This document shows, piece after piece, positions 6,148-38,578 of a stretch of DNA of 64,000 nucleotides. Origin of the DNA: Thelocarpon superellum (taxonomy: Eukaryota). Both the position numbers and the translations under genes were made by a program. The stretch lies in the NCBI GenBank assembly GCA_026025795.1, contig JAPEUG010000001.1, positions 1 to 64,000 on the forward strand, in the 5' to 3' direction. The notes beneath the pieces were generated by a model. That model ran no database searches and was not told the origin of the DNA. It saw only the letters and a list, made by a program, of their open reading frames with translations. Numbering within the stretch: the first letter of the stretch is position 1; the number at the start of each line of letters is the position of its first letter.

Positions 6148-7731
<1,584 letters not shown>

Positions 7732-11301: not shown

Positions 11302-12345
11302 CTAGCGGTAGTCGAAGAGGGCATCTCCAAGGACAAGAGAGGCGTCGTCCTGTCCGTCGTCCCCGTCGCTACCTCCATCTCCACACCCCTCTCTGTCCCC
11401 AGCGTCAAAGCCCCCGCCGCGTACACCCAGTGCTACCTCGCCGTCTGCATTGCCACAATGGTCGTCGAACAAGCCAGCGAGACCCGGGGGCGGCGTGAAC
11501 GTCAGCGTCGTCGCGGCGGAGCCGGACCCAGAGAGGGAACCGGAGAAGGGACTCGAGCCAAAGGCGGCATGGCGGCGAAAGGAAGGCGACGGGGTGGCGG
11601 GGAAGGCGGGATCCGTCGAGCGCGCGACGACGGAGCTGCCGAAGCTGCTGAAGCACGACTGCGGCCCGTCGGGTCCGAAATCAAGCATGCGCTGCGCCGT
11701 CGGCGTGTTGCTGTGGCTGCTGCGTAGACTGCGGCGTTCCCAGCCCGCGAGCACGTCGTGCACTGCGCGGCTGGCGGGGTCGTGCGGGTTGTCGAGGCTG
11801 TCGTGGCTGTCGTTGTCGTCCCATTCCTCGTCCGCGGCGCCACAGTTGTTGTCCTCGGCCGGGCGGAAGGGCCGCGTGTGCGTGAACGTCGTGCCGAGCG
11901 TGGTGGCCATGCTTTCGTCGCTCCCGCGGCGTGAGGCCGATGGCGTCGACGCCGACGTCGACGTCGACGTGGTCAGCACTCCCTTTTGGAGCTTGGTGGG
12001 CGTCGTGTGGGCGCTGCGGGCCTTGGTGATGCGGCCGCCGTTGACCGCGCCGCGCTTTCGACCTGCGGGCGTCGTGTTGGGCGAGGCACGCTTCGTGGAG
12101 GCCGAGCTGCCGCGTTTTCCAGCACCGCGTGTGGGCGCCGGTGGACGGGCGCCGCTCTCGACTTCCTGCTTCAGCGTCTCCGCTTGACGCTTGATGATGC
12201 GAAATTGCCCCTCGATGCTGTCGTACGTCGCGCCCTCGCCGAACATGGTCGCGATCGTCTGATAGTTGAGCGTCAGTGGCCCCGAGGCACAGATCGCCGC
12301 CATCAGGCGCTTGCACATCGTGGCAGACTGCCAGTCGATCGGCAT
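11302..12345 (-). CDS. Array gene 1: Myb/SANT-like three-helix protein (W-type), intronless
   Basis: MPIDWQSATMCKRLMAAICASGPLTLNYQTIATMFGEGATYDSIEGQFRIIKRQAE, then a basic and Ser/Thr-rich tail; ATG at 12345. Confidence 0.8.
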   Translation of the reverse strand: MPIDWQSATMCKRLMAAICASGPLTLNYQTIATMFGEGATYDSIEGQFRIIKRQAETLKQEVESGARPPAPTRGAGKRGSSASTKRASPNTTPAGRKRGAVNGGRITKARSAHTTPTKLQKGVLTTSTSTSASTPSASRRGSDESMATTLGTTFTHTRPFRPAEDNNCGAADEEWDDNDSHDSLDNPHDPASRAVHDVLAGWERRSLRSSHSNTPTAQRMLDFGPDGPQSCFSSFGSSVVARSTDPAFPATPSPSFRRHAAFGSSPFSGSLSGSGSAATTLTFTPPPGLAGLFDDHCGNADGEVALGVRGGGFDAGDREGCGDGGSDGDDGQDDASLVLGDALFDYR

Positions 12346-13842
12346 CGTCGCAAGGGTGGGGTACAGCTTGTGGGGGTGAGAGGGTGAGGGGGTGAGGGGG
12401 TGAGGGGGTTCGGATTGTGGAGGTGAGAGGTTCCTAGCAGACCCTGTCAGTTCGAAGATGATTCGACCAAGATCTGACGTAGACACATACCAAAGCTAGC
12501 CGGAAGCTGAAGGACGCTTGATCGGATTGAACTTGTGATGTGTGGAGGTGATGCTCAAGCAGTAGACAACCCAGAAGCAGGGTCAAAATTGTGGAGTAAG
12601 AGGGAGCGGATGCAATGGACTCTATAAGATCGGTAGAGTCTATCAAGGATAGAGTTGGTCACAATGATGAAGAGATGGGAAGAACACAGCCAACAGTAGC
12701 TTGTATCATGCACCACTTCACTCTCACAGGCTAGAGCGAATTACCGGAGCTTGTGCTGGGTGAATGTGACAGAGGAAGCTCTTTCCTCGACGTGTCCCCG
12801 TGGCCCATTTATAGTGGGTGCCGCTCGAGGGGCTCTCGAGCGAGCCATATCGTGCCAGATCAGGCTGTTCCCGATCCGCCTCACGGCACACGAGCCTGGC
12901 CGGTAGGGGGCCCTTCATTGAACCGATCGTTCCTGTTCCGTCACCGCCATCTGGCCGCGGCTCTGACTCACGGCCGCGGTGGGACATGGCACAGCGTCCC
13001 TACGGATTCGATGGCGCGTCCCATTGCCCCCTGAACCGTCCGGGCCTGTAGTCAATTCCGTCGCGGGAACAGCCAGGAGCTGCGAATGGATGCCATCATT
13101 CCGAGCTTCAGCGGCGTGCGTGAGTGGGCATGGCGGGTCTAGCGAGCACTAGCGACTAGCGCAGGTTATGGCACGCAAAACGAGCTAATGCACGGCGAGA
13201 GGTACCGCAGATCCCGGTCGGCGCCAGGTACCGAGACAGGTACCTTCTGACGCCGGCAAGAACCTCCACATGTACCTGTACCGTATCACAAACACCCGCT
13301 GTCGTCATCTTCAGCCTTGCAGCTAAACCTCTTTGATCGCATCAGTGCACAATGTGATAAGAAACACGTCGAGCCCTGCTCGGTAGCGCATTCTGCGGCG
13401 TCAACGATTTGTCCCCGATCACATCGAACGATGGCTACAGCGGGAGATGGAGATGGAGATGGAGGGCGGAATTCGGTGGTTGGCTGGGCAAGATGTGATG
13501 TGTCGGAGGAGTTATCCGACCGGCATGCCGGATCGCTCGGTATCCTGATCACTCGCCCGTCGGCGAGTGGGGCCGATGCAGAGAGCGCTCATCCGTGGAA
13601 TATGGGGGTGACCCGGCGATTGTCATGGTCCTCATGGTCCTCATGGTTCCCACAGGTCGGCGTCGAACCCTCGTGTGAAGCGTTCGTCTTGCATTTCAAG
13701 CCACCGAAACATTTTAATCATCTACCTGTACCGCTACCGGAATCAAGACACCGAAGCCCCGCCCACTGCCGCTTCCCTGTGCTACACTGAATCCCGGTCC
13801 CGGGACTGGCCGGCCTCATGGCCATGGACAACGAGTTGATGA

Positions 13843-14608
13843 TTAGTCAGACATGTCCTCCTCACTGGCCGCGTACATGTCTAAATCTGCGCTGTCCTCG
13901 CTGGAGACGTCAGCGTCGACGCTGGGGGGAAGGCCGACCGTCGTATCAGCCGCGTTGACAAAATCTGGCCCGTCGTCGTCAGGCCACCCCATGAGCGGTT
14001 CATCGAGCACACGGTAGTTGACGGGCTTGCGTTGACGCAGTGCGCGAGGCTTCGAAACGCGGCCTGCGGTGACTTTTGTGGACTTGCCAATCTGTGTAGG
14101 CGTACGAGGAGAGGCTGAAACGGGCCCTCGGAGTGTAGGGCTCCCATCAGGCGTTAGAGCTGGTGGCGAGATGATATCCTCCGGCTGGTCATCGCCTTGT
14201 TCGATCTTAAGCACTGCACCACCTGGAGCGGTAGCTTGCGCAGGCATGTTCTTTGGAGTGCGTGGCATCACGGGTTGCGGAGCGGCCGCGCCACGCTGAC
14301 TGCTGCTGGAGTTCTCCTGAGCCTTCTCACGGAGGATAGCCAGCCGCTTGGAGATCGCGTTCGGCGTAGTCGCTAGCCAGTATCCCGGATTAGCACTTCG
14401 GTCTCACAGTCCTTTGCTTTTCACACGCACCCATGAGTTCTGCAACTTTGGCATAGTTGGGCTTGACGTCGCTGGCAGCCAAGATCACTAGGAGAAGACG
14501 CTTATCGGTCGAATCATCCCATGTGATACGGGGTGCGGAGGATCGCCTTTGCACGGATCAGCATCGATCTGGTAACGGGGCAGAGAGAAGGTAAGGGACG
14601 TACGGCAT
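13843..14608 (-). CDS. Array gene 2: Myb/SANT-like three-helix protein (W-type)
   Basis: Spliced (introns 14603-14547, 14430-14373): MPRSSAPRITWDDSTDKRLLLVILAASDVKPNYAKVAELMATTPNAISKRLAILREKAQE, continuing in frame into ORF 13843-14271. Confidence 0.82.
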
Positions 14609-15887
14609 GTTTTCCGCTATCTTTTACGCGGTGGATCAAGTCGTTGAGGGAGGCGATCAGGAGACGAAGGGAGGAGCGGTCAGCAATTGCCGGGCGTAGT
14701 GGTGGTGGGGCAAAAACAGAAGATGAGCGCAGGAATCCACGTCGAGGACATTGCTGGCTCGAAGCTCCGGAGCGACGGTGAATGTCCATGAGCGATGACC
14801 TCGCCCGCACGACGTGAAGGCGTTTCCCAATCAGGAATCGGATGGAGATGGCCACGACCTCCGCGCATGTCGTCAGCAACGCTGCTCTCGTTCCATCCTC
14901 GGCGGTATTCTACTGCACCAAGTTCAATGTAGGATGCAGCTGGATCACTAACTGCAAGACTGGCGCTAGCCCGTCCGTCGGGCCCTCTAAGCACGACGCA
15001 GCATCTGTACGGCATCCCTGAATAGACGTTAGGAAGCACGGAAGCAAGGCCAAGGGGTCACATCTTCTTCCCGTCAGATGGTCAACGTGAAGTGATCTAG
15101 AGATACGGACGGCTGTGGTGGACCAAGAGGATCTTCGAAGCGTCTCTACAGCTCTGTGGATGCTCACAGAGCCTATCGTAAGCGAGTCGCTGAGAGGCCG
15201 GGCCACTCCCGGTTGCAGGCCGGTGCCACCCCTCGGCTCACGCGGCCGCCCTGGCATGCAGGGGTCTACATCTTGTTCGGGCGATCACTGGTACGGAGGA
15301 CGTGGCTGCTTCGGCGTTGCTAGCGGCACCACTCAACCAAAGCCAAAATCCATGGCCGCTTTTCCCCACAGTCGTCAGTGTGGAGTGACGAGACGCGTCG
15401 GTATGGAGGGGCGGAGGTATCGATCGCTTCCCATCTCGCACGGAGTGCCAATACTTTTGATGTTCTTGACCGAGCCCTTGTGTATCACCATCCACGCATG
15501 GCGCTTGATGGTCCACGCTCGGGGTGTCCTCGTAGCAATGGTCCAATGGTGAATGACATGGAAGGAGGTCACTTACGGCCTGACCGCCTGGAGGTCCCGG
15601 CTCTCCGAGTAGTGCTCATGTCCGCCGAATGTTGCGCTTCACTCTTGATTTCTCGAGCGCTCGACGTTTTCCTTCGTGGCTTTCAACCACTCCTGTCCGG
15701 TTAAAGCAGCTTCTCCTCCTTCGCTTTCTTCTCCACGCAAGACGTGCCCACTCCATTAGCGCCTCTGCTCGAGACTTGCCAGTGATTCTGCCGCTTCATC
15801 AAGCGAGCTCCACCACCCTCACTCCAGCCGCATTGACCTCTTGCTCGGAACAGTTCAGCTCATCGTGGTGCTATCGTCTTCTTTAAG

Positions 15888-16639
15888 ATGCCTGTCAAAT
15901 GGACTCCCGACAATGACCACATTGTAAGTGTGCTCTCGCGATCTCTCCGATCGCATTCGTCTGTGCTCTCATCGTTGGAGTGGATATCTCTCAAATCACC
16001 GTCGTCGTTACACTACCCCTCTGCACTCGCTCACATGGTCCTGTCCAGCTCCTCTTGAAGCTCCTCGAGACTCATCCAGCAATCGCCATCGACACGGGCG
16101 CTATCTCCGCCTCGTGGCCCTCGGATCGCGAGAAGCCGTCTCCACGTGCGATTACGGAACGCTTTGTGAAGATTCGTCAACTCGCCCGGGCCTCGGGGGC
16201 GGGGAACTTCAGCGTCAGCGCAAGCCCCACCTCCAATGCCAAGAAGGCTCGCCCCACATCGACCCGGGCTAAAGCGCCGGCGACGGCGAATCGCGATAGC
16301 ACCGGTGCGGGTGTGGGCAAGGCCAAGGCTAAGCGCGGCGGCACCATCAAGTCCAAGGCTGTCGGGCCCAAGATCGAGACGTTGAGTGACGCGGGAGACG
16401 AGATGGGCTCCAGCAACGCTAGCAACCAGGTTGACTTCGTTCTCCGCCGTGCAGAGAGTAAGACCCTCGTCCTCGCCGACCTCGACGACGGTGCCTCTGT
16501 TGGCCACGCTGGTTCTGGGGAGGACTACGGCAATGGACACGACGAACCCAAGCGCCTCGATGCACTCGACGCCTACGACGACGGGGGCTATGGGCAGGTT
16601 GTCCACGGCGCTGGTCGTGAGGATGGAGACGAGTTCTAG
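15888..16639 (+). CDS. Array gene 3: Myb/SANT-like three-helix protein (W-type)
   Basis: Intron 15924-16048: MPVKWTPDNDHI|LLLKLLETHPAIAIDTGAISASWPSDREKPSPRAITERFVKIRQLAR, then a Lys/Ala-rich and an acidic tail. Confidence 0.85.
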
Positions 16640-17374
16640 TCCGATGACGCCAGAACAGAAGGACGCCTCGCATTCGGCCGTTTGCCTTCCTTCTACCCGT
16701 ACCCTTTTTCCCTGAACCTCGCTCCCCAACTCTTTTCAACCCAGAGTAGTCACGAAAGAACAAAACAGAAAATGCATCCAAAAATCCAAGTCGAATCATG
16801 CCAGCTACTTTCATGGTAACAGAGGCGTAATGCGCGCGATATGACGGTGTTCATTGAACCAGATCCAACAAACAACTCGAAGCGGACGTTCCGTGTTGGG
16901 TCGAAGTTGTATGTTGCATCCCCCGCAAGCGCTCTGCCGCGCACCGCACAGCCGCGGATACTCTTTCGCCTATCGCCCGGGCGAGCCGCGAGCCGCGGCT
17001 AGCGTTTAGAGGACGAGTTGCGCGCGCGTGTGATTTCCGCGCTACGGAAGGCGAAGACTCGCAGCGACGCAGAATGGCAATGCCGCTCGCCCTAAAGTAC
17101 CCCGACCGGCAGTGTACATGATCCTGAGTAGGCGTGGCCTCCTTCCTTCCGCTACGCCGGACTATAACGCCGAGTGCGACACATCCGAAATTCGCGTCGC
17201 GGATTCTGAATTCCCAATTCCGAATTCCACGCAGCCAGCGACTGGGATCTGAGATGGAGCTGCTGCATGTGCAGCTTCACCTCAGAGCTTCCCTCACTGC
17301 TGTGCCTATGGCAGTCTTGATCTTTGCTCTTAGAGGTTTGGATAGAGGTGGTGAGAGGGAAACAACAATGTAGC

Positions 17375-17615
17375 TGTGACGACGAGGCCTACAGCTAGGC
17401 AGAAACAATAGACGTCGTCAACAGGAGTTGATGTTGTGACTTAGTAGGGCTTGTAGACCTAGTTCTGGCTTCGTAATACTCAAGTGGAACACTGGGGCTC
17501 TGCTAGCTTGCTGCGCAACTCGAGTTATACCGTGGGTACATCACATGCGCTGTCACATGGCCACCCCGTGACTTCCCCTATCCTTACAGCGAGGTCCAGG
17601 GTTCCCGGCCTCACA
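17375..17615 (-). mobile_element. Solo LTR related to the gypsy B-family LTR
   Basis: TGTGACGACGAGGCCTACAGCTAGG...CTGGGGCTCTGCTAGCTTG...GCCTCACA is colinear with the LTR at 42498-42754 (TGTGACAACAAAGGCCTACAGCTAGG...GCCTCACA). TG...CA ends; no matching 5-bp TSD. Confidence 0.85.
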
Positions 17616-18157
17616 GATGGACCAACCATCCGCAAAAGTAGAGCCGTGACAAATGGTGGACACTACTCTGCGCACCCCCAGGTTCTGAACTGACCAGCCT
17701 CATTACCAGCACACGAGCGTCGCTGATGAGAGCTCCCGCATCCGGCAGTGGCGACGTAAGATCTTTCCACAGCAAAGGACACAAATGCTCCTACGGTGGC
17801 AAGGCCGTGTCTGCCAGGCCACGTCTCGCTAAGTCCGCGTACGAGTCCTGGTACTGGATGGACCTCATCCATTCGCGTGGACGGTGGAGGCGAGTGTGCA
17901 AGATCCGAGGAGAATGCCTTCAGCTCCATTCCATTCATTCGATTGCGAATATTCGCTTCCTTGGTCGTGGGCAGGGAGTACAGTCAGGGGAGTGAAAGAG
18001 AGAGGGAAGAACGAATGCGGCGTGCGCGCGACCCTGCTTATCTCTTCGTTTCCTTCTCTTTTCCCTCCGCTCTCTTTCCCCTTCCCTTCTTTGCACCCTT
18101 TGGACCTTTCAATCCCTGTGCCGGCCCTACTCCGTCGCTACGATGCCTGCATGAGCC

Positions 18158-18718
18158 CTACTCGGACGACGGATCCGGTGTGGCCATCAAGGTCTTGGTC
18201 GTTTTGGCCGCGGAACGCTTTCGCTTCTTCGCCAGGACCATCTTTTCCTCATCCACGTCATCGTTATCATACCCCTCGTCATTCTTGTCGTCCTCGGTGG
18301 AGATCTCGTCCACATGGCGCTTCATCACCTTGGCTGCCGATTTGGGTTCTTTCTGGGGCGTGCGCGGCACGGAGCCGTCGGCCGACTCTGCCTCCTTGCG
18401 CAGTTTGAAGATTCGATGGCTGATGGCCTTGGCCGTGCATCCTGTGTGGTTTGAGTGATCGAGTGGATGAGCGGCTGATGAAGCCGAGCGTCTTGTGGGG
18501 CGCGATTGGCTCACCTTCGCCCATGGCGGCCGCGAGCGCATTGTAGTCGAGTTTGACCTCGTGCACTTTCAAAATGTTGATGAGGAGCTGTTTTCGCCGG
18601 CGACAGATGCTCGTGGTCAGCGTGAGGTAGGTGGAACGGTTATAGATGGAGGCAATTTGCGCGCGGATGAGATCATACTTACACGCACGTGGGCATGATC
18701 GTCCCAGCGCACAGGCAT
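18158..18718 (-). CDS. Array gene 4: Myb/SANT-like three-helix protein (W-type)
   Basis: Introns 18682-18588 and 18514-18442: MPVRWDDHAHVR|LLINILKVHEVKLDYNALAAAMGE|GCTAKAISHRIFKLRKEAE, then RTPQK and a KKRKR NLS-like tail. Confidence 0.85.
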
Positions 18719-19616
18719 CTTGATAGCGTTGAAATCGATGGTGATGGGAGACAAGAAGGTGTTGTTGTTGATGTTCTCTTTCGAGGTCAGATTGGGAATC
18801 AAGGGGTGCGCCAGATGGGATGAGAAGGGAAGCGGGGAACTGGAGGCATCGAAGAGGGTGCGAGAAGAAAGTGAGAGAAAGGCAAGGACAATGACACACC
18901 ACGAGTGATCACGGCGAGAGTTTCTGACTTGAGCTGACTGAGAGGAAGAGCGAGAATGGACGGAGCAGAGCAAGGATGACTCGAGCCAATGCAGACAGAA
19001 CAAGGATGTCTCGCGCGAGTGCGACTGCGAGTGCGGAGGCGCATGCGAGCTGGGTTGAGCGAATGTGACGAGAGAACGCAGCGAGGGTGGAGTGGAAGAG
19101 AGTGAAAGGGTGGTGGGGGAAAGAAAGAGAGAGAGAGAGACGGCCGGGGAGGAAAAGCAAGGGAGGAAGAAATGGGAACGGTGAATTTGCGCCAGCCCCC
19201 AGCCCCACCCCCTGCCCCGCAAGCGGACCATGAGTTACATAGGTGGAGGACTCGAGACCTCGTCATGAGGTACTTCTTCCACATGCTCGCAACTACGCAG
19301 GATGGCAATTGGATCTACCCTCGAACCAATCCAGATAGTAGCGTCATTTAGGTTGGAATTGGCGTTGCCTATGCTGTTGTACAATGGTCAAGTTCGAGGT
19401 CGAGGTCGAGTTCGACCTTGATGTGAACTTCTAGGTCTCGAGTGCGTTGAGATGAATGCGCGGATTGCACGTCGTGCTCAGAGTTCCTCCTATGCCCCGC
19501 CAATCCATCGAGGACCTCTCTGCGCATGCGCCAGATGCCTCCGCATGAGCACCCAGCCCTGCCTGCCATGTACGTGAGCGCCTGATGCAAACGACTTCGT
19601 CCATGGAAGGTGGAAT

Positions 19617-20192
19617 CTACTCGTAGAGGCTGCAACGCGTCAGCATCCAACCCGCCGGACATTCCAGAGGAGAAGTAGAGACGAGACGAACCCATCTTCC
19701 GAGACCAGGTCGACCACGTGGCCGGCGGTAGGATCCTCAATCTTGAAAAGAATGGCGCTCTGTTCTGGGTCTGGCTTGAGCTTCTTCATCCGCGGCACGT
19801 CGTCGAGCAGCTCCAGCTCCTCGTCGTCCTGCGCAACGGACGCCTGGCGTTTGGCCGCCTTGGACTTGGGCGTGGGCGTTTTGGCACCGTTGGATCTGGA
19901 GGGCGTGGTGGGGTCGGCGGAGTTGCGACTCTCACGTTTGAGCTTCTGAAAGTGCTGACTAGGCAGAGTCAGTCGATGTGGGAGGAGAAGGGAGATTGGA
20001 GCGATGTGGGAGGAGAAGGGAGATTGGAGAGGCCACGAGAGAGAACGCGTTGTCGTACCGGCATGCCTCATTGGTGAAGGTCGGGCCCATCTTCTCCGCG
20101 ACAAGAGGCCACGAGGGTGTCTTGGGATTGAGCAGTTCGATGATGACGAGCAGGAGCTTGAGCTCAGCCGTATTGTCCCACGGGGACGGCAT
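19617..20192 (-). CDS. Array gene 5: Myb/SANT-like three-helix protein (W-type)
   Basis: Introns 20058-19959 and probably 19691-19630: MPSPWDNTAELKLLLVIIELLNPKTPSWPLVAEKMGPTFTNEACR|QHFQKLKRES...VDLVSEDGLYE*. Confidence 0.83.
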
Positions 20193-21300: not shown

Positions 21301-22246
21301 ATGCCCACCGACGGGCAGCATGCCAAGTTCCTGTACACCATCCTGAAGCAGCTCGATCTGAAGAGCGTAAGCCACCACGCCGCGACACGCGCCATTCCCT
21401 CTTCTCCCGTGCCGAGTTGACATGTCCTCCGTGTAGATTGACTGGCAGGCCGTGGCCTCACAGCTGGACATCACCAACGGCCATGCGGCGCGGATGCGAT
21501 ACTCGCGCTTCAAGGCGCAGATGGAAGGCCACGTGCCCTCGCCACGACGCCGCACGCCCGGCGGGAGCGCGCCCATGTCGAGCGCACGCTCGCGAAAATC
21601 CATCAAGACGGAGTGCTCCAAGTCCAAGACGCGCGGCCTCGACCAAGCCTGCGGCATGCAAGGCGACGACGACGAGGTGGCCGATGCCGCAGCCACGCTG
21701 CCGCCGGGCGGCATCAAGACGGAGCACGGCACGAGCGAACGCGGCTCGAACGAGCACTGTGCGCCAGACCACCCCGCATACCTCGGCGTGCTCCCGACCA
21801 TGTCCGCATCGAGATCAGAAGAAGAGCGCCGCTTGCTCGGCGCCGTGGACCACCAACTGACCAACCTAAACCGAGACTTTGCGTCCGCAAACACGGCCAC
21901 GCCGCCGGCGTATCCGTCGCCGCCCTCCCCGCACCACGCACTGGCCTTGACGCCTCCGCCCTCCTCGCACCATCTGCATCCCCACCCTCACCCTCCTTCT
22001 CAGCTCCACGGCCACAGCCATCCCTACCGACCGGCCATCCATGCTCAGCCGCCCCGGCGAGACTTCGGTCCCTATGCCGCCATGTATCCGCAGATGACGG
22101 CGGAGCATGCGGTCTTGGACCCGTTGTTGTCTCTTCCCCAGGGCCCGGGTGGCAATGGAACTGACCAGGGACAGGCACGGGGACAGGGACAGGAACAGGG
22201 GTCCATGCACGGACACGTCAAATCTGAGCCACGCTGGGATGAGTGA
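21301..22246 (+). CDS. Array gene 6: Myb-like DNA-binding-domain protein (FL-type)
   Basis: Intron 21367-21436: MPTDGQHAKFLYTILKQLDLKS|IDWQAVASQLDITNGHAARMRYSRFKAQMEG, then a His/Pro-rich tail ending VKSEPRWDE. Confidence 0.9.
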
Positions 22247-23417: not shown

Positions 23418-23986
23418 ATGTCCGCTCAAGTGCAGCCGACGCCAAAGGAAGCCTTCTTCATGCTCCATGTCCTGAACAATCAAGAGGGAAAGCCCAAGGT
23501 GAGTGAGATTCTCATCTCGTTTGAGATAAACGCTTCGTCGCACGCACTCATGCACCTAAGCTCATCTTGTGCCTTGTTCTGACCACCGAGCCGCAGGTCA
23601 ACTGGTCGAAAGTCGCGGAAGCGGTCGGCCTGAAGAACGGAGCCACGGCCTCGGTCCGTTTCGGTCAGATCAAGAAGCGTTTGGGATGGACTGACCCGTC
23701 CTCGTCCGCCGCCACCGCGCCATCCACGCCCGTGTCCACGACCGCCCCGCGCAAGACCATTGGCAGCGGGACGAACTTGTCCCCGAGCAAAGTTACCAAG
23801 CCACGCGGGAAAAATGCGGCCAAGGCCAAGATGAGCCAGACCGTGGTGCAGCATGGGTCAGATGTGGCTGATGTCCTTAACGGCGGGGGAGACACCCGCC
23901 ACAATGCCGTGGTGCTGTACTCCAACGCAGACCATGACATGGGATTGAACGGCGACGACGACGATGCCGACGAGGACGAGAAGTAA
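23418..23986 (+). CDS. Array gene 7: Myb-like protein (FL-type)
   Basis: Intron 23499-23596: MSAQVQPTPKEAFFMLHVLNNQEGKPK|VNWSKVAEAVGLKNGATASVRFGQIKKRLGW. Probable 5'-UTR intron ending at 23416. Confidence 0.87.
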
Positions 23987-24597
23987 ACTCGAGAGGTGCC
24001 TCGACGTAGCGATTCAGATGAGCTTGAAATCATCAAGCCGCAGAGCCATAAGCCGTGCTCCAGAGCAGAAGTAGAAGAGTTAGGAGGCAGTGACCAATGC
24101 CACATTTTCTCACCATCCCGTAGATCTGGACCGCCCAGTATTAGTATCGCGAGCACGTCGTCAGACCTCCAAGAGAAGCATCTCCTCGGTTTAGCGTATC
24201 CCCACTCTGATTCCTCGCGTCCTCACTGGTGAGAGGCCTGGACTGCACTCATGTGAGGTGGCGGCATTCACCCCGTGGGGAGTTGCGCACCTTAGTGGAG
24301 CCGCAGCAAGGTGGGCGGGGGCCCCTGGTAGGACCAATTGTAAACAGTCTCGACTATTTAAGTAGCATCGCCACCACACGGTCTGTCTCTCCTTCTTCTT
24401 CTCCTTACCTTCTACCACCACACCTCCACCAACGCCTGTACCTTCGCTGTCGTCAGCCAGTGTTCATACCAACCACATTCCCTCACGTAAGTCCCCAGCA
24501 TCCGGCAGCATCGTCCTTTGGTTGCGCGTCGTGCGGCACGCAGTGACCATCACGTCTCTCACCTGGCGTGATCTCAGTTCTCCATCTCCCAGCCAAG

Positions 24598-25271
24598 ATG
24601 TCGGACACGCCTCCGAAGACCCCAACCACAATCGCCACCAACGGCAAGCCTGCCATGACCGACGCAGATTCCAAGTTCCTTATTGAGTGTCTCAAGAACA
24701 CCAAAGGAGCTGTCACTGTAAGTTTGTCTTTGGAGTTGTGATCTTAAACTGGCGTGCCAGAGAACCTGCATGTCATTTTCGCGTTCTTTCCCCAACCGCA
24801 AATCCACCTGCCTTCAGGGCTGACTCACCTTAGATTGACTTGGACGCCGTTGCCAACGCTCTGGATTACAAAAACCCTCGCTCGGTCGGAAACCGCTTGG
24901 CCCTCCTCAAGAAGACGTACGGTCTAGCCATCACGACCTCTGCCTCAGGCAAGGACACTGGAAAGGAGGCCAACAAGGACGCCTCCCCGGTCGCAGGCGG
25001 TCCGATCAAACCCGACAAGGTCGTCAAGAAGCGTACGCCCCGTAAGCCGGCGGCCAAGAAGCCCAAGAAGGAGGAGGATGACGGAGATTTCAAGGTCCAG
25101 CCTGTCAAGGACGTTGAGGACAAGAAAGTGCCAGCCACCGAGAACGTTGACGAGCCCATGGGCGATCAGGGTCACGACGAGGTCAAGGCTGGTCCCGATG
25201 ATGAGCCCATGGCTGATCACAAGGCCGATCGTGGTGACGAAGCGCTTGAGGCTAACGCCATCGGCGCCTAG
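24598..25271 (+). CDS. Array gene 8: Myb-like protein (FL-type)
   Basis: Intron 24718-24833: MSDTPPKTP...MTDADSKFLIECLKNTKGAVT|IDLDAVANALDYKNPRSVGNRLALLKKTYGL, then a basic and an acidic tail. Confidence 0.87.
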
Positions 25272-26045
25272 TTGATGGCACCATAACCGCCGCCCTCCAT
25301 GGCACATCTTCCTCGGCATTCTTGGCAAGGAATCATTCTGGACCACGAGAATGAGATCGAATTGCGGATTTGAGGGTGCACTTGGTACAAGGGGTGGCGG
25401 GTGGCGGGTGGCGGGTGATTTCACAAGGGGGCGAACTCGCTTCTTTTTCTCCCGTGTTGGGCCACTCTTCTCGGCCCTGTCCCCATCAGTCTCGCAGACA
25501 CCGTTCCCGGTCGTCCTTAGATAGATGCAAAAGAAATTCACGACCCTACCATCACTTCCGTCGCAGCACTCCGTAGCACCTGTGGCTTGTAGTAGCTCCC
25601 TTCCAGTCACTGCGGGAGCTGGCTCGTCTCACCCCTCTCCAGTCGTTGCTGATCGTCTCTGCAACCTTTAGCCATTGCTTTCCTCCTACTTGGAGCGCTC
25701 CCCAATTGGCGCGTACCTCTTGTCAGTCACTGAAACGTGCGTCTTCCTCATCCACCTCGGTGGTTCACTTCCACGACTTACTGCCGCTTGCACCTTCCAC
25801 TCTTCTCTCCCACCGCAACACCCCTGGAAAGCTGGACAACTTCTCTTCTGCGCTCAACACTCTCATCCACCCAACAAAGGCAGACTTCCACAATCAACAA
25901 CGTGCCAGCCTCAGACTCTTCCTTCGCGATCAAGCTCGTGAGTCTTTCTTATCGCTTTTGCGTCGCCGTACTCCTTCACCCTTAACCAATCAGTTGCAGT
26001 TGCGTGTCGTCAGCCGCAAAGTCTGCTCAGCAAATCAACCTCACC

Positions 26046-26892
26046 ATGTCTTCCGACGAACGCGATGCCTCCAAGGAGACCAAAGAGTTCACCCCCGCTG
26101 AGACTCGTCTCATCCTCATTGCCTTCAAGCATATGACTGGTACCCCCGAGGTGAGCGAATCGAGCCACATGGCATTCTCTTTCCCGTTCTCTTCATCTCG
26201 AATGCCCTCTCTATCACCGGACGATCCTTGGCAAATTGGTCGCGACGATGACTCCTCTCATTCGCCTTTCCGTGATCTTTGTTCCCTTTGCGTTGTCGTG
26301 CTGGCGCGAGCGGTGAGCATCGGTCGCAAGCATCTCACTACTGGTTGTGCATTAGCCTCGGTACACTTGACTTCTCCACTGACACCACTGACACCACTTT
26401 CGGCAGATCGATTTTGAGAAAGTTGCCCAAGAGTACGGGTACAAGAACAAGACGTTGGCCCGTTCCAAGTACACCAACGCCAAGAGCAAGCTGTCCAAAT
26501 CAATGGGCATCGCTCCGGTGGCCAAGGGCCGCGGACGCACAACGAAAGCGGCGACGGATAAGACGACGGCCAAAGGGTCAGCGACGGCCAAAGTGACCAA
26601 GGCCAAGGGTACGGGCGTGAAAGCCAAGGGGACCGGGGCAAAGCGCGGGCCCAAGTCCAAGAGCGATGTTCTCGTCAAGGACGAGGACAAGGTACTGGAC
26701 GATGGGGAGATCCATACCGAAAACTCGGAGCCAGCCGCCACCGGCGATCATGGGAGTGAGGAGTGGCCTCCCACGCCTGGGTTTCCAGCTTCAGAAGCCA
26801 TGGCATTGTCCGAGGGGCAAGGGGATCTTTCCATGGGTAACGGCGTGGAAAAACAGGTCGCCGAGGTCTCCGCCGCTCCTCTTCTAGGATAG
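26046..26892 (+). CDS. Array gene 9: Myb-like protein (FL-type) with histone-H1-like Lys/Ala/Thr tail
   Basis: Intron 26151-26406: MSSDERDASKETKEFTPAETRLILIAFKHMTGTPE|IDFEKVAQEYGYKNKTLARSKYTNAKSKL, then KGRGR and TKAKGTGVKAKGTGAKRGPK. Confidence 0.85.
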
Positions 26893-27657
26893 CCTTTCTC
26901 TCCACGGTCAGTCCTCGGCACCGGTTCCAGCGCCATTGCGAGACTTCTCGGCGCGATGATAGGGTTGAGCTCCGGCGGAACGGCTGCCGACGACGGGAGG
27001 AAGTGAATGGAGGAAAGGAGAAGACGGTCCCTCGTCCGATGACGATAGGTAGAGACTAGACGAGTAATCGGACCAAGCATTCCGCCACACCGTTGAGCCG
27101 TCACCGTGGATGCGCGGCGCGTGGGCGCCAGAGTAGATTGATCGATTCGTGGGCGCGTGTGGTCGTGGGGTCAAGTCTGTGTAGGCGCATGGGCGCGTTG
27201 CTGCATCCGCGGGGGGCTGTTCACCTTCTCACAGATCCCGGCTTTCACCTATGCACCTCGCCCGACCACATGAACCCCAACTCTTTCCATCACACTTTCT
27301 GCTACCCACCCATCCACTTTCTTTGACGTGCGCAAGCAACTCTCCGGTGCCACTTCTCTCAACCCACACTCTTCCCGAGTTTGATAGCTGCAGCGATCGT
27401 CAATCATCATGCGGACCCCAGGTGACAAAACCGTAAGTGTCCTTTCTTCTTCCGTCCCAGCTCTTAATAAGTGCCGACGAGTCTCCCCTCTCTTCTGCCT
27501 TGATTCTGTCTTTCGCATCTCGCCTGAACAGACACCATCCGTCTCTTCCACGCATGAGACGTCTGGCTTGAGCCCCTCACCGACCGCGAGCCGCGTCACT
27601 CGCGTCAGCATCTCCTCACTTGTCTTGCTGACGCCCCGTGAGCGACAGACTCCGACC

Positions 27658-28416
27658 ATGAGCCCGTCTAGCAACGACGAACAGTTCAAGTTTCTGATTG
27701 CCTGTATTCGCCATGCCAATACCGGCAAGGTGGGACTCCCCTCTTCTCACCTTGCGTGCCACCCTTGTTGACGTATTGCTAGGTGGACTTCGCCGAAGTC
27801 GCCAAGGAATGTGGCATCGTGTCCAAAGGAGCCGCGTGAGTATCGGCATCCTTCGAGCTCGAGCGCAGAGTACCCTAGCGACGGGGACTTTCTGCTGACG
27901 TGTCTGGGACATGACAGGGCCAAACGCTATGAGCGTCTGATGAAGGCCCACGGGATCCCTCCTGCGGGGGCCTCGCTCCGTGCTCCGACCACGCCAAGCA
28001 CGAGCAAGGTCACCACGCCGAGCACCAGCAAGAAGCGTAAGCTCGGCAGCATTCCTCACGAGCCTCGCGAGGCCATGGATGATGACGAGCGCCCGACTGG
28101 GGTGAAGGCAGAGGTTGCCGGAGGGTTGGAGGACCCGTTCGTCATCAAGTCTGAGGGCTCCGCGATGGCCTGGAACGGTACTGGTAGTATGCCCTTCCCT
28201 TTCAATGACCACGAGGCACAGCCGGGCACTTCGGGCCCGACGGCCACGCCGTACCTCGAGTATCACCCGACGCCGAGACCTGGATATATGGACTATGGAT
28301 TCGGCGACGTGGCTGGATCGGGCTTTGGGCAGACTGCCGGCGATGAGCGTGCCGATCAAACCGACCTTTCCAAGACCGGCGACGGCCCTGAGGACAGCAT
28401 CCTCATCCCCGAATAA
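27658..28416 (+). CDS. Array gene 10: Myb-like protein (FL-type)
   Basis: Introns 27730-27782 and 27836-27917: MSPSSNDEQFKFLIACIRHANTGK|VDFAEVAKECGIVSKGAA|AKRYERLMKAHGI, with KKRK, VKAE and IKSE in the tail. Confidence 0.9.
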
Positions 28417-30124
28417 ATTCGTGCCATTGCCGCGACCGCTCCTCGGGATGTTCCAGCAAGGTTAAGAATCAGACCAGGAGCGCGTGGGTGGACCGGTGCG
28501 GGTGTCTGCTCTGCGGTGTTAGGCAAGATGTCCATTCCATGGATAGTTGGTAGACGGGAGTGTCAATTCTGTCGATAGACGGACCAGGGACGTCAACAGA
28601 AAGATCTTCGGACCTTCCTCCTACCTGGGTCCCCTTCCGAGAGAATACAATCAAGTTTCTGCTCTGCATCCGGAATCCTCCCCTAGATCGATGGAAGATG
28701 TGGAGCATGAGACACAGCTGCACGGACGAGTCAGCTCTCGCCTCTCTTCTCTCTCGCCCGCTCAGAGCCGGTCGTTAGCGATGGATCCTCGATCATCCAT
28801 AGTATGCCGATCACCAGGCAAGGCACTCACTTGAGAATAGCAGATAGAGTGAGAGACATGCACACGGCCATCAGCGCTTCCAGGCTAGGGCTGGGCTGGT
28901 CCACCCGATGGCACAAGAAAGTCCTGTGGGGGTGGAGGTATACTCTGCCGCGTCGTAGCCCCCGCGAGCATAGACCATCCTTCGTGTCAGGGCTTCAAGT
29001 CTCCATTACCGACCCAGGTCACGATGACTCGAGTCCTTGGCACGCAACGCTTGGGAACACGATGGAGAGGGGATGGATGGTGGAGGTAGAAGGGTAGCAG
29101 TTGGTGGGAAGGAGACGAGGAATCTGCAGGTTTGTGGGCTCGTGGGCTCGTGGGCTCGTGGGCTCAATCACGGACTTCTCCGTGCCGATAAAAGTGACCT
29201 CCGCAGCCATACGTGAATCCCCACCAGGCAACAGACCCCTCCAACAGTCTCAACACCGGACCTGACGGTGAATCCGCCGTAGTGGAATGTCGCGCCATCG
29301 CTTAGCAGGATCAAGGGAAGATGGAGGACCTGATCCGGGCACAGCACATGGGCAGAATGAGCAGACATCCTGGGACACGTGTACTGAATAACGATCAATT
29401 CAATATCCTATCATATCCCCTTTGATCATCGCGGGTATCACTGCCCCCGCAAGCTGCGACAAGATGCCTCTTCTGCTTTGACGGCAATGCTGCTGTTCTT
29501 CGGTGACGGCACAAGTGCCTGACGAGTCTTGGCATGTTTGTCTGGTGGCACGTGCCACACATCCATCGCCGCCCTTGCCTGGCACGGATAGCCGCGCGGC
29601 TCTCGCCTCGAGCTGAAATCCCCGGTCGGGGAAACAGAAGACGACATCTCAGCTTCGTGTTCTGGATGTGACGACTCTCTTTCCTCTCACATCGCTGGAC
29701 GAATTCCAGCATTCAAAAGTTTGATAGCAAACAGGCGGCGGACAAAGAGGGTGCGTCAGGTTGTGGAGAGCTTCTACGTGCTGGAATTCCAGCATGTGTT
29801 TTCCAAAGAGACCGTCCTGCGGTCCAACGCGGACGGAAATGGTCCAGACCAAGAGCGAAGACGCCTTGATCAACGTGGTCTTCGATGCCCAAGAGCTGAG
29901 AAAGACAGCCTTGCTATGGGCTTATCATGATGAGACCTTACTCTCGAGTGGTCTCTGCTCCTTCCGCTGTTGCGTGCCGTTTCCCCTCCCCTATATGCGC
30001 ACAGGACGCGCATCGTCTGGTCACCCGCGCACCCACAAATCCTCGTAAATCTGCTCGATAGATCTCAAATCTGTTCTTCCCTTCACGCTACTTCATATCT
30101 CTCAGCCTGCTTCCCGATTCATCC

Positions 30125-30166
30125 ACAGAGCCACAGAGCCACAGAGCCACAGAGCCACAGAGCCAT
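30125..30166 (+). repeat. 8-bp tandem repeat (CCACAGAG)x~5 in the 5' region of array gene 11
   Basis: ccacagag ccacagag ccacagag ccacagag ccacagag read directly. Confidence 0.85.
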
Positions 30167-30214
30167 CGAACCAGGGATCACTTCGGAGCCCATCAAAGCA
30201 GAACAGGCAACACG

Positions 30215-31283
30215 ATGAAGTGGAACGGTAAGCCAGTCCCTGCTCCGCTAGCCCTCGACCGTCTCGAACGAGATGTGAGGGCTCTTCTGACCTGGCCTTC
30301 AAGGTGACGCCGATCGCAAATTGCTCCTGTGGATCTTGGCCACGCACACGGTCCAGCTTGACTCCGCCGCAGCCGCGGAGATGATCTCTCCCCAGTGCAC
30401 TCCACGGGCTTTGGTGGAGCATCTGAAGCGGCTCCGCAATGAAGCCGAAGCGTACGGATACGGGGATACTGCCCCCGAGACGCCCACCAGCCAGACGCCC
30501 GTCCACTTTGGCCCGACCCGTCCCAGCAAGCGCAAGGCAGAGACTGGCGCCCTCATGAACACCGAGACCGGGCCCCCCACCAACCTTACCGGCGTCTTCC
30601 CCCTCTCGGGGCACTACGTCAATGACGACCAAGCGCGTGCGGCTCCAGGCACGATGATGCAAGGCGTCATGGGTGATGGAGGCGCCGCCCCTTTCCAACT
30701 AGGGAACGCGCCGGTTCCTGACTGGGCCCAGTCATCCGACGTGGCCCTAGGAAACAAGGCGCGCTCCCGCATGAAGCAATTCACGCCGTTGTACCACCAG
30801 GGCCAAATCAACATGGCGACCCCCCACGATCCCGGGGCCACGACGTCGAGCACCCTGGCCACAGAGAACCAGACGTCCTCCCGCACGATCGCACCCATGC
30901 AATCATCCACCGTGGCCCCGGACAATACGACGTCCGCCCCCCTGCCAATGTTCAACTGGCCATACGTCGTGCCCCGCGTGCCCACGGGGACCTCCACCAT
31001 GCCTCCGCCAGCGTCAGCTCGTGCCACAGCTGCCAACACCGAGGCGCCCTCCTTGCACCTCCGGGACAAGCGCCTGCACCGGATCACCCCTGGTACCACT
31101 ACTCGGCAGATGTTGGTTCAGAACCAGGACGAGACGGACGAGGAGGCCTCCGTTGCCAAACGCACCAAGGCCACGCATGCCACCGAGCCGTCTACCAGCA
31201 CTGGCAAGTTGTCGCCGTTCGACAAGAAGCTCATTGCGACCATGAAAGAGAAGGAAGACAACGAGGAGAAGTATGAGTGGTAG
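30215..31283 (+). CDS. Array gene 11: Myb/SANT-like three-helix protein (W-type)
   Basis: Intron 30228-30303: MKWNG|DADRKLLLWILATHTVQLDSAAAAEMISPQCTPRALVEHLKRLRNEAE, in frame with ORF 30321-31283. Confidence 0.85.
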
Positions 31284-32506
31284 AGCATAGCCCATGTCTG
31301 GAGGGGATGTGGGTAGCTCGCTGCCATGTACGCGCGCACCGCACCTGCTCCGTCTGCTTTCCCCACCTATGCCCGAGTACCCTCCCCCATCCCGTTTTGC
31401 TTTCACGCCCCGCTGCCCCCAAGCCTTTCTCGGCGTCTGCCATGTCTGTCTGTGCGCCATCACACTACCGAGTGTGCCGGAACATCACCACGAGTTCGAG
31501 TTCCGATTCTCCCCACAAATTTGCCTGCTTGCGTGCGTGTTCTGCCTCTTTCCGTCGCCCGTGATCCTCTCCTACCCGCATTTCGTAGGTGGCCAGACGC
31601 GTGTCCGGTCATCGATGCTTCAGAATCAGCCGTATGCGGAGTCGATGCCGCCGGAAGCGCGGCTGATCGATTGCATGACATCGGCGTCCCAACAGGCCAA
31701 ATGTGCAGTGCACCGCTGCCAATAGGCCTTACGGGAATATACATCGGCGCGAATCTTGCACGTGTCACGTGATGTTAGTGAATCGGCACCAGCACGTGCT
31801 GGGGCATCAGCGAGGAAAGGAGAGGATAGTGCGAATTCACTCCGTCGATAGTTGACGCCTGCTGGTAACACAGAGGTGCATCTACACCTCTTGCCGCTTC
31901 ACTGAACTCGGCTCGATGGCCGCCTTGGATGTTAGTTGGTGTCTTGCTCAGCGCCCGCGCCTGTATTCGCGCTCCAGCGAGTATCTCTCCATGCCAGCGT
32001 CACTTGCTCTTCAACTCGGAGGTCGTTGTCTGCGGCGAACAGTACGCGTCCAAGTCGGGACAAGAGATATGGGAAGCATTGTGTGGCTTGCCCCGCTGAC
32101 CCAGCACGATGGACTTCATGAGCTTCCTTTCACTTCGTCTTCGTGGCTTGCGTGCCGTCTGACTGAACCTGGACGTCGTGGAGTGACGACGCTGCAATTT
32201 CCGCTGTCACCGCTCCTGTCCGCTGTGTCCCTGGAGCGGAATCGCGCGCATTCACGCCACGGCCGCGCACCGCTCGTCCGCCTCTCCCACCAGCATCGAC
32301 ATAAAAAGATCCACCTCTCACCGCCCGCTGCTCCTTCTCCTTCGCTTCCCACGGTGTCCAGCCTCGACGGTCGAGGCTCACCAAGGTCTCACTTCTCCGA
32401 CCCACCTTTCTCATCGTGCTCGTCTTGTCTTCCTGCTCCGTCGTGGGTCACAAGGCCTCGCCTCGTCGCCAAACGCACGCTGCGATCCCTCTGACCGAAA
32501 GTTGCC

Positions 32507-34820
32507 ATGGTCCGCCCAAGCAAGCGGTACATCGTCCGCTGGGATGGTGAGTCCCTTCCCAAGGCCAATACCTCCTGTACTCTGCTATCTTACGTGTTGA
32601 TGGACATGACCCGTCGTGAGGTCTTCGGATCCGAAGCGATTGTCACAGTGTCATTGTGAGCCGTGCCGAGGAAGGAACATGTCGTGGCTGACCCCGTTCT
32701 CTACAGATGAGAAAGATCAGCGCCTGCTGCTTTGCATCCAGTACGGATGCAATGAGAAGGGCGTCAAGCTCCCATGGGATAACATCACCCGCGTCCTTGA
32801 CCCGCAAATCTCCGAGGGCGCCATCATCCAACACCTGTCCAAGATTCGACAGCGCCTCGAGTCGCATGGGGTTCCTGTGCCCCCACCGCTCCGGCGCGGT
32901 GGCCTGGCCGTGCCCGATGCTACTCGCGCCGCCATGGCCAACCCACCGAGTCTCCGCTCGGCCCCCCGCCGCGATCGATCAAAGGCGGTCTTGGGCGTTG
33001 CCGGCTCGTCCCCTACTAGCAAGGTGGTCGCAGTCGACGCCGAGAACGACGCCGAGTATTCACCCACCACCAAGAAAGGACGCGCCGCTTTGGGTCGGCA
33101 GAGCAATGGCAAGGCGGCCAAGCGCGAATTTTCGTCGGACGAGGAGAATGAGAAGATCAAGCGTGAGGTCGAAGTAGATGACCAGACGCCGACGTCCCAA
33201 GGCAAGTACAAGAGCCGAGGCAAAGCCGGCGGTGTCAAGCGTCGACGCACGGGGAAACACAGCGACAACGCGGCCAAGGATGGCACACAAGGGGGTGACG
33301 AGTCTATCAGTCATGTCACGGAGGAAGACAAGGCGGTGGGGGCATCGTCCTCCCGCGGTCGGAACGCGGGATACATGAAGTTTTTCGAATCCGATAGCGA
33401 GCACTCAGACGGCGAGCGATCCGGGAGCGGGCAATCGGATCTCAGCACCGAGGTCACCAATGGGTCGCCCAGCGGCATCGTGGTCATGAAGCTGCCCAAG
33501 GGCTATACCTCTGCCGAGTTCCCCAGGGGCCTCGCGCACTGGCCTGCCGGTGCGTTCGAAGGCGATATTGCCGTCTCAGACGGAGGGTATAACAGCCCGG
33601 GCCCCAATGACCCAGTCGACCCCACCGACGATGAAATGCCAATCGGAGAACGTATGGCCCACGCCGACGCCGAGAATATTCCGCCGGTGGGCCAAGTGAT
33701 GACCCACCCCTCGATGAGCCAAGCGATGGCACCGCCGTCGAGGGCGATGCAATCCACCTTCGCTCCCGTCAGCAACGTGTCCACGCTCCCGCAACCCGCC
33801 CTGGCCTCGAATCCGTCGACGTACCTTCAAGGTCCCCAGCCCGTGAATCCATCAGCTTTCCTGCCAGCCTCGCTGGGCTCCACCACGTCGATGTATCCAC
33901 AAGCTCCCGCTTCCATCAATCCAGCGATGATCTTGCAACATCCGCTGGGCTCGAGCTCGTCGACGTACCCACAAGTTCCTCCAGCCCCGCTCATACCGAC
34001 GTACATGCAACACGCGCCCCCCGGGCCGAACCAGTCGACGTACTTGCAAGTGCCCTCAGGGCTAAGCACTTCGACGCACCCACCAGGAGCCCTAGCTCCG
34101 AGCCCGTCGACGCACGCGCAGGTTTCCATGGTTCCAAGCCTCTCCATATACTCGCCCGCTGCTCTAGATCCAAATGCGCCACAATACCCGTGTTCAGCTC
34201 TTGACTTCACCGGCTTCGACAACGCGCTGGGCGAGTATCATGACAACATCCTCAGCAACGCCGAGCTGGACACGTTCGCGGCTGGGACCTCCTTCGCGTC
34301 ACAGCCTGCAACGGGGACGACGACCCCGGGTCATCCCAACGTTAGCCTGGTACAAACTCCGACGAGCCATGCCACCCGTACGACCTTTATGACCCACACG
34401 ACCTTGGAGGACGTAGAAGCAGCCACCCGTGCCCTGCAGCGTGTTATGGAAGGGCTACCGCCGGATCAGCCACACGCCGAACAGTCCACTGTCAACCCCG
34501 GAACGATGACGACGACGCCGGTGATCATGGTGAATGGAATGCCCTCTTTCACCGACCCGACGCTTCCCATGCCGATAGCTGGGGACGATGGTATCGCCTC
34601 AGGTGAGGATCAGCTGGCGGTGGGGCTCACAACCGACGTTGCTTCAGGCGTCGATCAGTCGGCGGCTATGCTCACAGCCGACGCGGCTGCTCAAGAATAT
34701 TCTGCCTTTGAAGACCTGGTGGACCTTAGTGGTTATGATGACGATGTGGGGGATCAGTCGATGCCAGATGACCCCTGGTATGAGGAGAGTGAACCGAACC
34801 CTACAGCTCCGTCAACCTAG
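32507..34820 (+). CDS. Array gene 12: Myb/SANT-like three-helix protein (W-type) with long disordered tail
   Basis: Intron 32547-32706: MVRPSKRYIVRWD|DEKDQRLLLCIQYGCNEKGVKLPWDNITRVLDPQISEGAIIQHLSKIRQRLESHG; about 700 aa in total. Confidence 0.87.

Positions 34821-36649: not shown

Positions 36650-38578
<1,929 letters not shown>

Follow-up and report, generated by a model that had tools for sequence, protein, structure and literature searches.

The closest described counterpart of the locus considered here, a row of twelve genes (g1 to g12) in the ascomycete Thelocarpon superellum, is the Pfam family PF22980 (Myb_DNA-bind_8, 'Myb-like DNA-binding domain', 50 positions), with which the array proteins share a three-helix layout, an N-terminal position of the domain and a fungal range (Aspergillus, Uncinocarpus, Geoglossum and lichen fungi). 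The Pfam entry, however, describes a domain and not a locus, and seven of the twelve genes either fall under its gathering score or do not match it. Canonical Myb/SANT repeats (PF00249) can also be aligned with the array proteins over helices 1-3, with the aromatic residues apparently in part kept (W/F ... W/Y/F ... F/Y/L), but the array proteins carry one repeat only, at the extreme N-terminus and with a degenerate tryptophan triad, and the similarity is weak (best single-domain E of 0.0022). Short W-type relatives of the g4, g2 and g11 types (30-46% identity) are called 'AT hook motif protein' in UniRef (Aspergillus fijiensis, Exophiala sideris), and a cluster of that name is nearest to the Atlas model of g11 (template modelling score 0.77 over 62 residues, a lead only); the name, however, rests on an AT-hook in the tail, and the hook of P0153 (E=0.034) lies under the cut-off. 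At the level of the locus, the Hox, plant R2R3-MYB and KRAB zinc-finger clusters likewise consist of tandem-duplicated paralogues of DNA-binding type whose order has long been kept, but the domain of the array is a single Myb-like repeat and its hosts are filamentous ascomycetes, in which it is unusual for gene order to be conserved for long and for paralogues to form arrays. We examined a window of 64,000 nucleotides (contig JAPEUG010000001.1, positions 1 to 64,000, forward strand) in which the twelve genes occupy 11302-34820. What is new here is the conservation of array members and of their order across fungal classes.

We consider it likely that the locus is a very old tandem array of paralogues coding for small regulators with a single Myb/SANT-like domain. 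Of the structural and evolutionary part of this reading we are confident; that the products are DNA-binding regulators is suggested by their domain, and on this part our expectation is evenly divided. The genes were modelled by hand on translations in three frames, with introns placed by GT..AG borders and branch-point-like sites, and each carries one of two types of N-terminal module, A (the W-type) or B:

g1, 11302-12345, minus strand: 347 residues in one exon; type A module (residues 1-60).
g2, 13843-14608, minus strand: 216 residues, introns 14547-14603 and 14373-14430; type A.
g3, 15888-16639, plus strand: 208 residues, intron 15924-16048; type A; identical to database protein P0030.
g4, 18158-18718, minus strand: 130 residues, introns 18588-18682 and 18442-18514; type A; identical to P0173.
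g5, 19640-20192, minus strand: about 137-150 residues, intron 19959-20058; type A; 3' end uncertain.
g6, 21301-22246, plus strand: 291 residues, intron 21367-21436; type B.
g7, 23418-23986, plus strand: 156 residues, intron 23499-23596; type B.
g8, 24598-25271, plus strand: 185 residues, intron 24718-24833; type B; identical to P0017.
g9, 26046-26892, plus strand: 196 residues, intron 26151-26406; type B; identical to P0020.
g10, 27658-28416, plus strand: 207 residues, introns 27730-27782 and 27836-27917; type B; identical to P0033.
g11, 30215-31283, plus strand: 330 residues, intron 30228-30303; type A; identical to P0016.
g12, 32679-34820, plus strand: 713 residues, single exon; type A, with a long S/T/P/Q-rich tail; identical to P0012.

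The first ~55-60 residues of all 12 proteins align cleanly over 62 columns, with the layout W/F-x(6-8)-[LF]L-x-x-[IL], then [IVL]-[DNP]-[WYF]-x-x-[VI]A, then A-x(3)-[RH]-[FYL]-x-x-[ILF]-[KR]; over these columns the modules are pairwise 5-39% identical. When each module was scored with a hidden Markov model (HMM) of the other 11, all twelve beat all 200 of their own shuffles (10.0-44.0 bits, against best shuffles of 2.3-11.4 bits), and nine scored 15-44 bits (g2, 34.2 bits). The weak scorers are g1 (10.0 vs 4.0 bits), g3 (11.0 vs 3.7 bits) and g9, a marginal case with the narrowest margin (12.2 vs 11.4 bits). No further module was found in a six-frame scan of the 2255 open reading frame (ORF) pieces of the window, the best match outside the array having E=0.061. 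Type A modules (g1-g5, g11 and g12) start with 'MP..W', and type B modules (g6-g10) have no N-terminal tryptophan and share, in all five genes, a phase-0 intron directly before [IV][DN][WFL]. In the 12-module alignment, g1-g5 and g11 have W at the first aromatic core position and g6-g10 have F or L, the second position is W, Y or F in eight genes and L, S or T in the others, and the third is F, Y, L or I; a Myb-type aromatic triad thus appears to be partly kept.

The initial annotation had proposed twelve consecutive genes with a common N-terminal module, and both the module and the exact span hold: 11302-34820 comprises 12 consecutive intron-bearing or single-exon genes that code for 130-713 residues, with introns of 53-256 nt that are all of the GT..AG class. 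Their splice sites are supported by consensus signals, by identity to database models and by unbroken alignment of orthologues across the junctions. Database proteins from the same 179-kb contig match seven of the manual models full-length at 100% (g3, g4, g8, g9, g10, g11 and g12). The database version of g5 (P0013) is 99% identical to the manual model over 136 residues and differs at the C-terminus, and that of g7 (P0015, 175 residues) has 19 extra N-terminal residues compared with the 156-residue manual model. For g1, the database protein (P0001, 338 residues) begins at the second methionine and lacks 'MPIDWQSAT' (12319-12345), which includes a tryptophan kept by all orthologues, and its start was probably mis-called. 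No same-contig counterpart of g2 or g6 was present among the proteins retrieved. The claim that no other gene type lies inside the array also stands. The locus tags of g3, g5, g7, g8, g9, g10 and g11 end in 000008, 10, 12, 13, 14, 15 and 16, a series that agrees with one tag for each gene and leaves no further annotated gene between g3 and g11, its gaps fitting g4 and g6; in addition, none of the nine gap ORFs inside the array (87-212 residues) has a Pfam match at E<=0.01.

Membership of PF22980 is clear for the five type B genes. The second exon of g6 alone matches the family at 44.2 bits (E=1.1e-11), the gathering cut-off being 27 bits, and precomputed PF22980.3 matches are recorded on the full-length g7-g10 proteins (P0015, P0017, P0020 and P0033); g6-g10 are members of PF22980 by the gathering cut-off, whereas half-domain scans scored g9 at 19.9 bits and g8 at 11.6 bits only. 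Under the cut-off are g4 (15.2 bits, E=0.013) and g5 (15.1 bits, E=0.014, with PF00249 at 16.1 bits, E=0.012). By profile-profile comparison type A is homologous to type B: hhalign gave a probability of 93.4% (E 2.5e-7) for the window sequences and 91.6% (E 8.3e-7) for separately built orthologue alignments (25 and 18 sequences), over the same 48 columns and all three helices. An HMM of type A also raises four of the five type B modules above 500 shuffles.

A profile of all modules, made from single-exon pieces only (A1), retrieved nine sequences from the PDB at E<=10, seven of them Myb/SANT; the best is the SANT domain of DNAJC2 (2m2e, E=0.0022), a weak signal, and the others are SNAPC4, CEF1, Reb1, ADA2, SMARCC and an S. 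pombe SANT protein. The module had been called Myb/SANT-like from its pattern of residues, and this description is upheld by PF22980 on g6-g10 together with the solved Myb/SANT domains that the profile finds. Against 1.84 billion representative sequences A1 matched 1169 proteins at E<=1e-3, 82 of them at E<=1e-10, and it also matches canonical multi-repeat Myb proteins confirmed by PF00249 (E 1e-13 to 1e-19); an HMM of type A only scores multi-repeat Myb proteins far above shuffles as well, in a set that A1 had pre-selected and that is hence not independent. Throughout, the relatives bear the source names 'hypothetical', 'Myb-like DNA-binding domain-containing' or 'AT hook motif protein'. A literature search returned no paper naming the PF22980/Myb_DNA-bind_8 family and none relevant by title or abstract, and no characterised relative was found among the homologues and the literature listings.

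Two sets of matches were rejected. TAL effectors, which the seven-sequence profile of type A only (A5) matched at E down to 1e-31, contain no stretch that passes singly and are an artefact of summed repeats, and mS23 and Lon, which appeared as PDB matches of the full-length type A alignment (A3), are driven by the tails. We note that summed-repeat artefacts are a general hazard for small leucine-rich helical profiles.

AlphaFold2 predicts helices at residues 8-21, 28-35 and 41-59 of g1 (predicted local distance difference test, pLDDT, of 85) and at residues 7-20, 27-34 and 40-57 of g4 (pLDDT 86-96 over residues 1-50). In both predicted models this three-helix layout of ~50 residues with a helix-turn-helix fits Myb/SANT. 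The tail of g4, with a pLDDT of ~50, is probably disordered. The domain has an isoelectric point of 7.8-10.1 in ten of the twelve genes, and its third helix is rich in R and K. The tails consist to 35-54% of S, T, P, A and G, are also rich in K proximally, with basic runs resembling nuclear localization signals, and are net acidic over the last 30 residues in 11 of the 12 proteins, often with aromatic residues. A short tail motif, V-x-x-G-R-[VI]-[ST]-K, is present in 13 of the 200 relatives retrieved, where shuffling would lead one to expect 1.3. It lies at residue 104 of g1 (~12020-12034, minus strand) and residue 144 of g2, and also in P0002-P0007, P0009, P0036, P0049, P0050, P0139 and P0159, the g1-type occurrences spanning several classes; it may be a linear motif for interaction or modification. 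Among the tail motif matches listed for the 12 window proteins, up to six per tail, there are only 'KGRGR' (g9) and 'AGRKR' (g1), with no R-G-R-P core. Part of the tail of g12 (33787-33987) is an imperfect internal DNA repeat (68-81% identity) that encodes reiterated S-T-Y-[LP]-Q-like segments.

Individual members of the array have recognizable orthologues in other fungi. Those of g1 in lichen fungi are 38-55% identical, and g6, the most conserved member, is 72-80% identical over ~60 residues to proteins of Aspergillus, Uncinocarpus and Caeruleum. An orthologue of g11 is found in Peltula (P0149), and orthologues of g12 in Peltula, Fonsecaea, Xylographa and Squamulea; a homologue search aimed at Aspergillus orthologues of g8 and g10 gave two matches, none from A. 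fumigatus. A tree was made by a quick search over 68 columns from 68 modules, namely the 12 of the window and those of 43 named proteins, each covering at least 35 HMM positions at E<=0.01; the other ~150 retrieved proteins, for which no source name was at hand, were left out. Modules cluster by gene across classes and not by species. The split between types A and B has support of 98/98, and orthogroups are recovered with a support of 99 for g10 (joined by Fonsecaea and Sarocladium) and for g12 (joined by Fonsecaea), 98 for g1 (joined by Leotiomycete relatives), 97 for g7, 95 for g8 (joined by Aspergillus), 93 for g6 (joined by Aspergillus, Uncinocarpus and Geoglossum), 88-89 for g11 together with g3, and 82 for g5; the placement of g2 and g4 is not settled by this tree.

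The order of the genes can be followed in named genomes by locus tags and by gene models in which neighbours are fused. In Peltula sp. (Lichinomycetes) the tags of g7, g11 and g12 are 000753, 000757 and 000758, with steps equal to those of the window, and in Thelocarpon impressellum g6 (001269) and g1 (001274) lie five steps apart, again as in the window. Spacing also agrees with the window in Phylliscum (g7 006296, g8 006297) and in Chaenotheca (Coniocybomycetes; g7 000078, g5 000080); in Caeruleum the tags are 003693 for g1 and 003697 for g6. At least two modules are present in 31 of the 200 retrieved proteins, some of which are canonical Myb repeat proteins. Others join array members: g6>g8>g10 in Aspergillus nanangensis, g6>g8 in A. 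melleus, A. unguis and one A. fumigatus strain, g10>g12 in Fonsecaea pedrosoi, g10>g11-type in Psora, g11-type>g12 in Xylographa, a W-type (g4/g2-like) module>g12 in Squamulea, g7>g10 in Sarocladium, g8>g9-type in Phylliscum and g5>g4-type in Exophiala. All informative fused models follow the window's transcriptional order, and none in reverse order was seen among the 200 retrieved proteins. Because fusions arise only from adjacent genes on the same strand, such models reveal adjacency even where the fusion call is wrong.

The genes beside the array in the window, identified by Pfam matches, all lie outside it:

6199-7599, plus strand: TIP49/RuvB-like ATPase.
7847-9310, minus strand: GYF-domain protein.
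9742-11129, plus strand: UFD1, the left flank (PF03152 and PF24842).
36756-38575, plus strand: Cpn60/HSP60, the right flank (PF00118).
39576-40157, plus strand: cofilin, next after Cpn60/HSP60.
40565-41131, minus strand: Get5.

The long ORFs at 1679-5338 have no Pfam match. UFD1 and HSP60, followed by cofilin, had been named as neighbours from the start. A scan of metagenome contigs for relatives of g1 gave 34 loci in 14 groups at >=90% nucleotide identity, and in eight of these groups the context extends over 10 kb or more. When the loci were scanned with an HMM trained on the genes of the window itself, six of the eight contexts proved to hold 5-9 modules inside 20 kb. In one of them, L006, the genes g5(+), g4(+), g3(-), g2(+) and g1(+) are followed by UFD1(-), which is the order and orientation of the window, with a kinase gene and an amidoligase gene separating g1 from UFD1 (10 kb). 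L021, L024 and L028 have in common a core of g4, g3(-), g2 and g1 with similar spacing; in L003 a weak module match (E 0.79) is all that occupies the place expected for g4, and L009 has g3(-), g2 and g1 only. A conserved linkage to UFD1, which the initial annotation had raised, is not supported by these contigs, UFD1 being within 10 kb of the array in this single context out of the six that bear one. A protein-kinase gene adjoins the array in four of the six (L003:2-589, L024:784-1974, L028:219-1895 and L006:10983-12095); none was seen beside the array in the window when the neighbours were scanned with Pfam.

Taken together, contigs, tags, fusions and tree indicate that both the duplications and the linkage, at least from g5 to g12, are older than the divergence of Eurotiomycetes, Sordariomycetes, Lichinomycetes, Coniocybomycetes and the Thelocarpon lineage, all of them leotiomyceta. 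The initial annotation had set scattered homologues as the outcome that would count against an ancient cluster; we find instead clustered, position-specific orthologues in several Pezizomycotina classes. Its view of the genes as old, diverged paralogues and not a recent amplification is supported by their low identity, with the module tree and with the DNA itself, which, as had been noticed, is not repeated and retains CpG: self-comparison of the window by blastn gave five non-self matches, four within the tail of g12 and one a 26-nt palindrome in g1, and the observed/expected ratio of CpG in the array is 1.00. The composition of the window changes to the right of the array. GC is ~0.60 at 1-42 kb and 0.43-0.48 beyond, and at 42000-64000 GC is 0.44-0.47, the CpG ratio is 0.01-0.02 and TpA/ApT is 1.3, compared with 1.0 and 0.5, respectively, in the gene-rich part. 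Broken Ty3/gypsy pieces (integrase core, reverse transcriptase RNase H and Tf2-1 SH3) lie there on both strands and look like retrotransposon relics mutated by a process resembling repeat-induced point mutation that removed nearly every CpG. CpG-free relics of retrotransposons thus lie ~7 kb from the intact twelve-gene array.

We propose that tandem duplication before the leotiomyceta classes separated produced the twelve paralogues, which have since then remained contiguous and largely collinear, five of them being of the PF22980 type and seven forming a diverged W-type sister group outside Pfam. The proteins are presumably nuclear; their basic domains and the basic runs of the tails would be indirect signs of DNA-binding transcription factors. 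Their basic third helix may contact DNA, or possibly nucleosomes, aided by the basic linker, and the acidic end could serve as a region for activation or for contact with histones; by analogy, the succession of basic domain, basic linker and acidic end would resemble that of small transcription activators.

Several results weigh against this reading. Seven genes (g1-g5, g11 and g12) miss the Pfam threshold, g2 not having been scanned as a spliced protein, and g1, g3, g11 and g12 have no Pfam match at all at E<=1. The HMM of type B raises none of the seven type A modules above shuffles, and profile A5 found no Myb structure in the PDB. The check by Pfam and AlphaFold/Foldseek that the initial annotation had suggested came out in part: it gave PF22980 on five genes and three predicted helices, but Foldseek returned nothing at E<=0.001 for the models of g1 (41 rows at E<=10) and g4 (11 rows), although the non-significant rows include ARR1-DBD, c-Myb and the SANT domain of Bdp1. 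The VIA structure search, over 48161 chains, reached a Z of 3.7 at best and was not led by a Myb, and the Atlas search gave feature scores of at most 0.82, which are leads only. Adjacency in named genomes is read from locus-tag numbers and from automatic, possibly wrong fused models and not from DNA. Three contigs (L003, L024 and L028) carry a block starting with the divergent pair g5(-)/g6(+) on the opposite side of g1; the array has hence been rearranged there and yet kept together. In two of the eight contexts a solitary g1-like gene stands amid unrelated genes (in L011 an IQGAP-like RasGAP, DUF952, a zinc-finger/fungal_trans factor and a major facilitator superfamily transporter; in L020 tubulin), and this gene is either a dispersed paralogue or belongs to a lineage without the array. 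Finally, no word of 7-10 nt in the 600 bp upstream of the 12 genes was enriched above 100 random sets, and the intergenic DNA of the array gave no match at E<=1e-4 against the 34 metagenome loci. With neither a shared promoter word nor conserved intergenic DNA, co-regulation is so far unsupported.

It is quite possible, although we lean slightly the other way, that the contiguity of the genes is neutral, that is, that tandem duplicates at short spacing have merely never been separated and that the genes are independent, with no function at the level of the cluster. The negative results on promoters and intergenic DNA just described are what one would expect in that case, as are the tolerance of internal rearrangement in three contigs and the lone g1-like genes in two others. 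Against this, the array persists while its flanks vary, as the positions of UFD1 and of the kinase gene indicate; the block of g5-g12 has been relocated as a unit with its divergent g5/g6 pair intact; and in every fused model and tag series that could be read, order is preserved across classes. Over such distances and between classes the genes of Pezizomycotina are as a rule reshuffled (mesosynteny), which also argues against neutral contiguity.

The main rival for the function of the proteins, which we think rather unlikely, is that the domain is a SANT-type binder of proteins or histone tails, or an adaptor in a chromatin complex, with histone-like or nucleosome-contacting tails, and not a sequence-specific DNA-binding domain. 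The best solved match of profile A1 is a SANT domain, and those of ADA2 and SMARCC are among its nine matches, but the DNA-binding Myb proteins SNAPC4, CEF1 and Reb1 are among the same nine. Single Myb repeats are often poor DNA binders on their own, which counts for a SANT-type role, and the V-x-x-G-R-[VI]-[ST]-K motif in the tails of g2 and of g1-type proteins could be an arginine anchor. The basic character of ten of the twelve domains and their R/K-rich third helix, however, are more typical of a DNA-binding Myb than of an acidic SANT domain.

That the twelve genes are an artefact of annotation, the real units being a few long multi-Myb proteins, strikes us as very improbable. Several of the 31 multi-module proteins do consist of fused neighbouring orthologues, but in the window each module lies directly at an ATG (mostly 'MP'), each unit ends in a stop codon that is followed by 0.6-1.8 kb with no open frame, and g1-g5 lie on mixed strands. 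Fusion would demand introns of 0.6-1.8 kb, compared with the 53-256 nt found here. Moreover, the Fonsecaea fusion is split in the sister species F. monophora, where AYO21_00481 and AYO21_00482 are adjacent separate genes, and the A. fumigatus g6 orthologue has 219 residues in most listed records, with a single outlier of 384. A chance likeness, or an expansion of low-complexity proteins confined to one lineage and lacking deep orthology, might be suspected from identities as low as 5% and from the weak leave-one-out scores of g9, g1 and g3, but can be dismissed in view of the leave-one-out test as a whole, the Pfam matches, the profile-profile scores and the intron position shared by g6-g10, and it is contradicted by the cross-class orthogroups, the collinearity of L006 and the order of the fused models.

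An old array of paralogues coding for single-Myb/SANT-like regulators, as we favour, might in addition be maintained by selection as a collinear complex of about a dozen such regulators in Pezizomycotina, lying in one chromatin domain or acting mutually or jointly, for example through cross-regulation or as mixed oligomers on DNA. We put this forward tentatively and think it rather doubtful. The comparison with Hox clusters made in the initial annotation is sound as far as the conserved order of position-specific orthologues goes, but no shared promoter word or non-coding block was found to extend it. If such a complex were real, it would be a fungal counterpart of the animal homeobox clusters.

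That an array should keep its members, and largely their order, from Aspergillus to lichen fungi is unexpected, because gene order scrambles between classes and because duplicates are attacked, as the relics a short distance away illustrate. Its retention suggests either that the whole locus is under constraint or that the genes have some unrecognised property. The work also enlarges a nearly unstudied family, more than half of whose members at this locus are invisible to Pfam, and makes a defined locus available in a model species (Aspergillus). To our knowledge, proteins of this kind are absent from the standard catalogues of fungal transcription factors; if they do bind DNA, they would add a dozen regulators.

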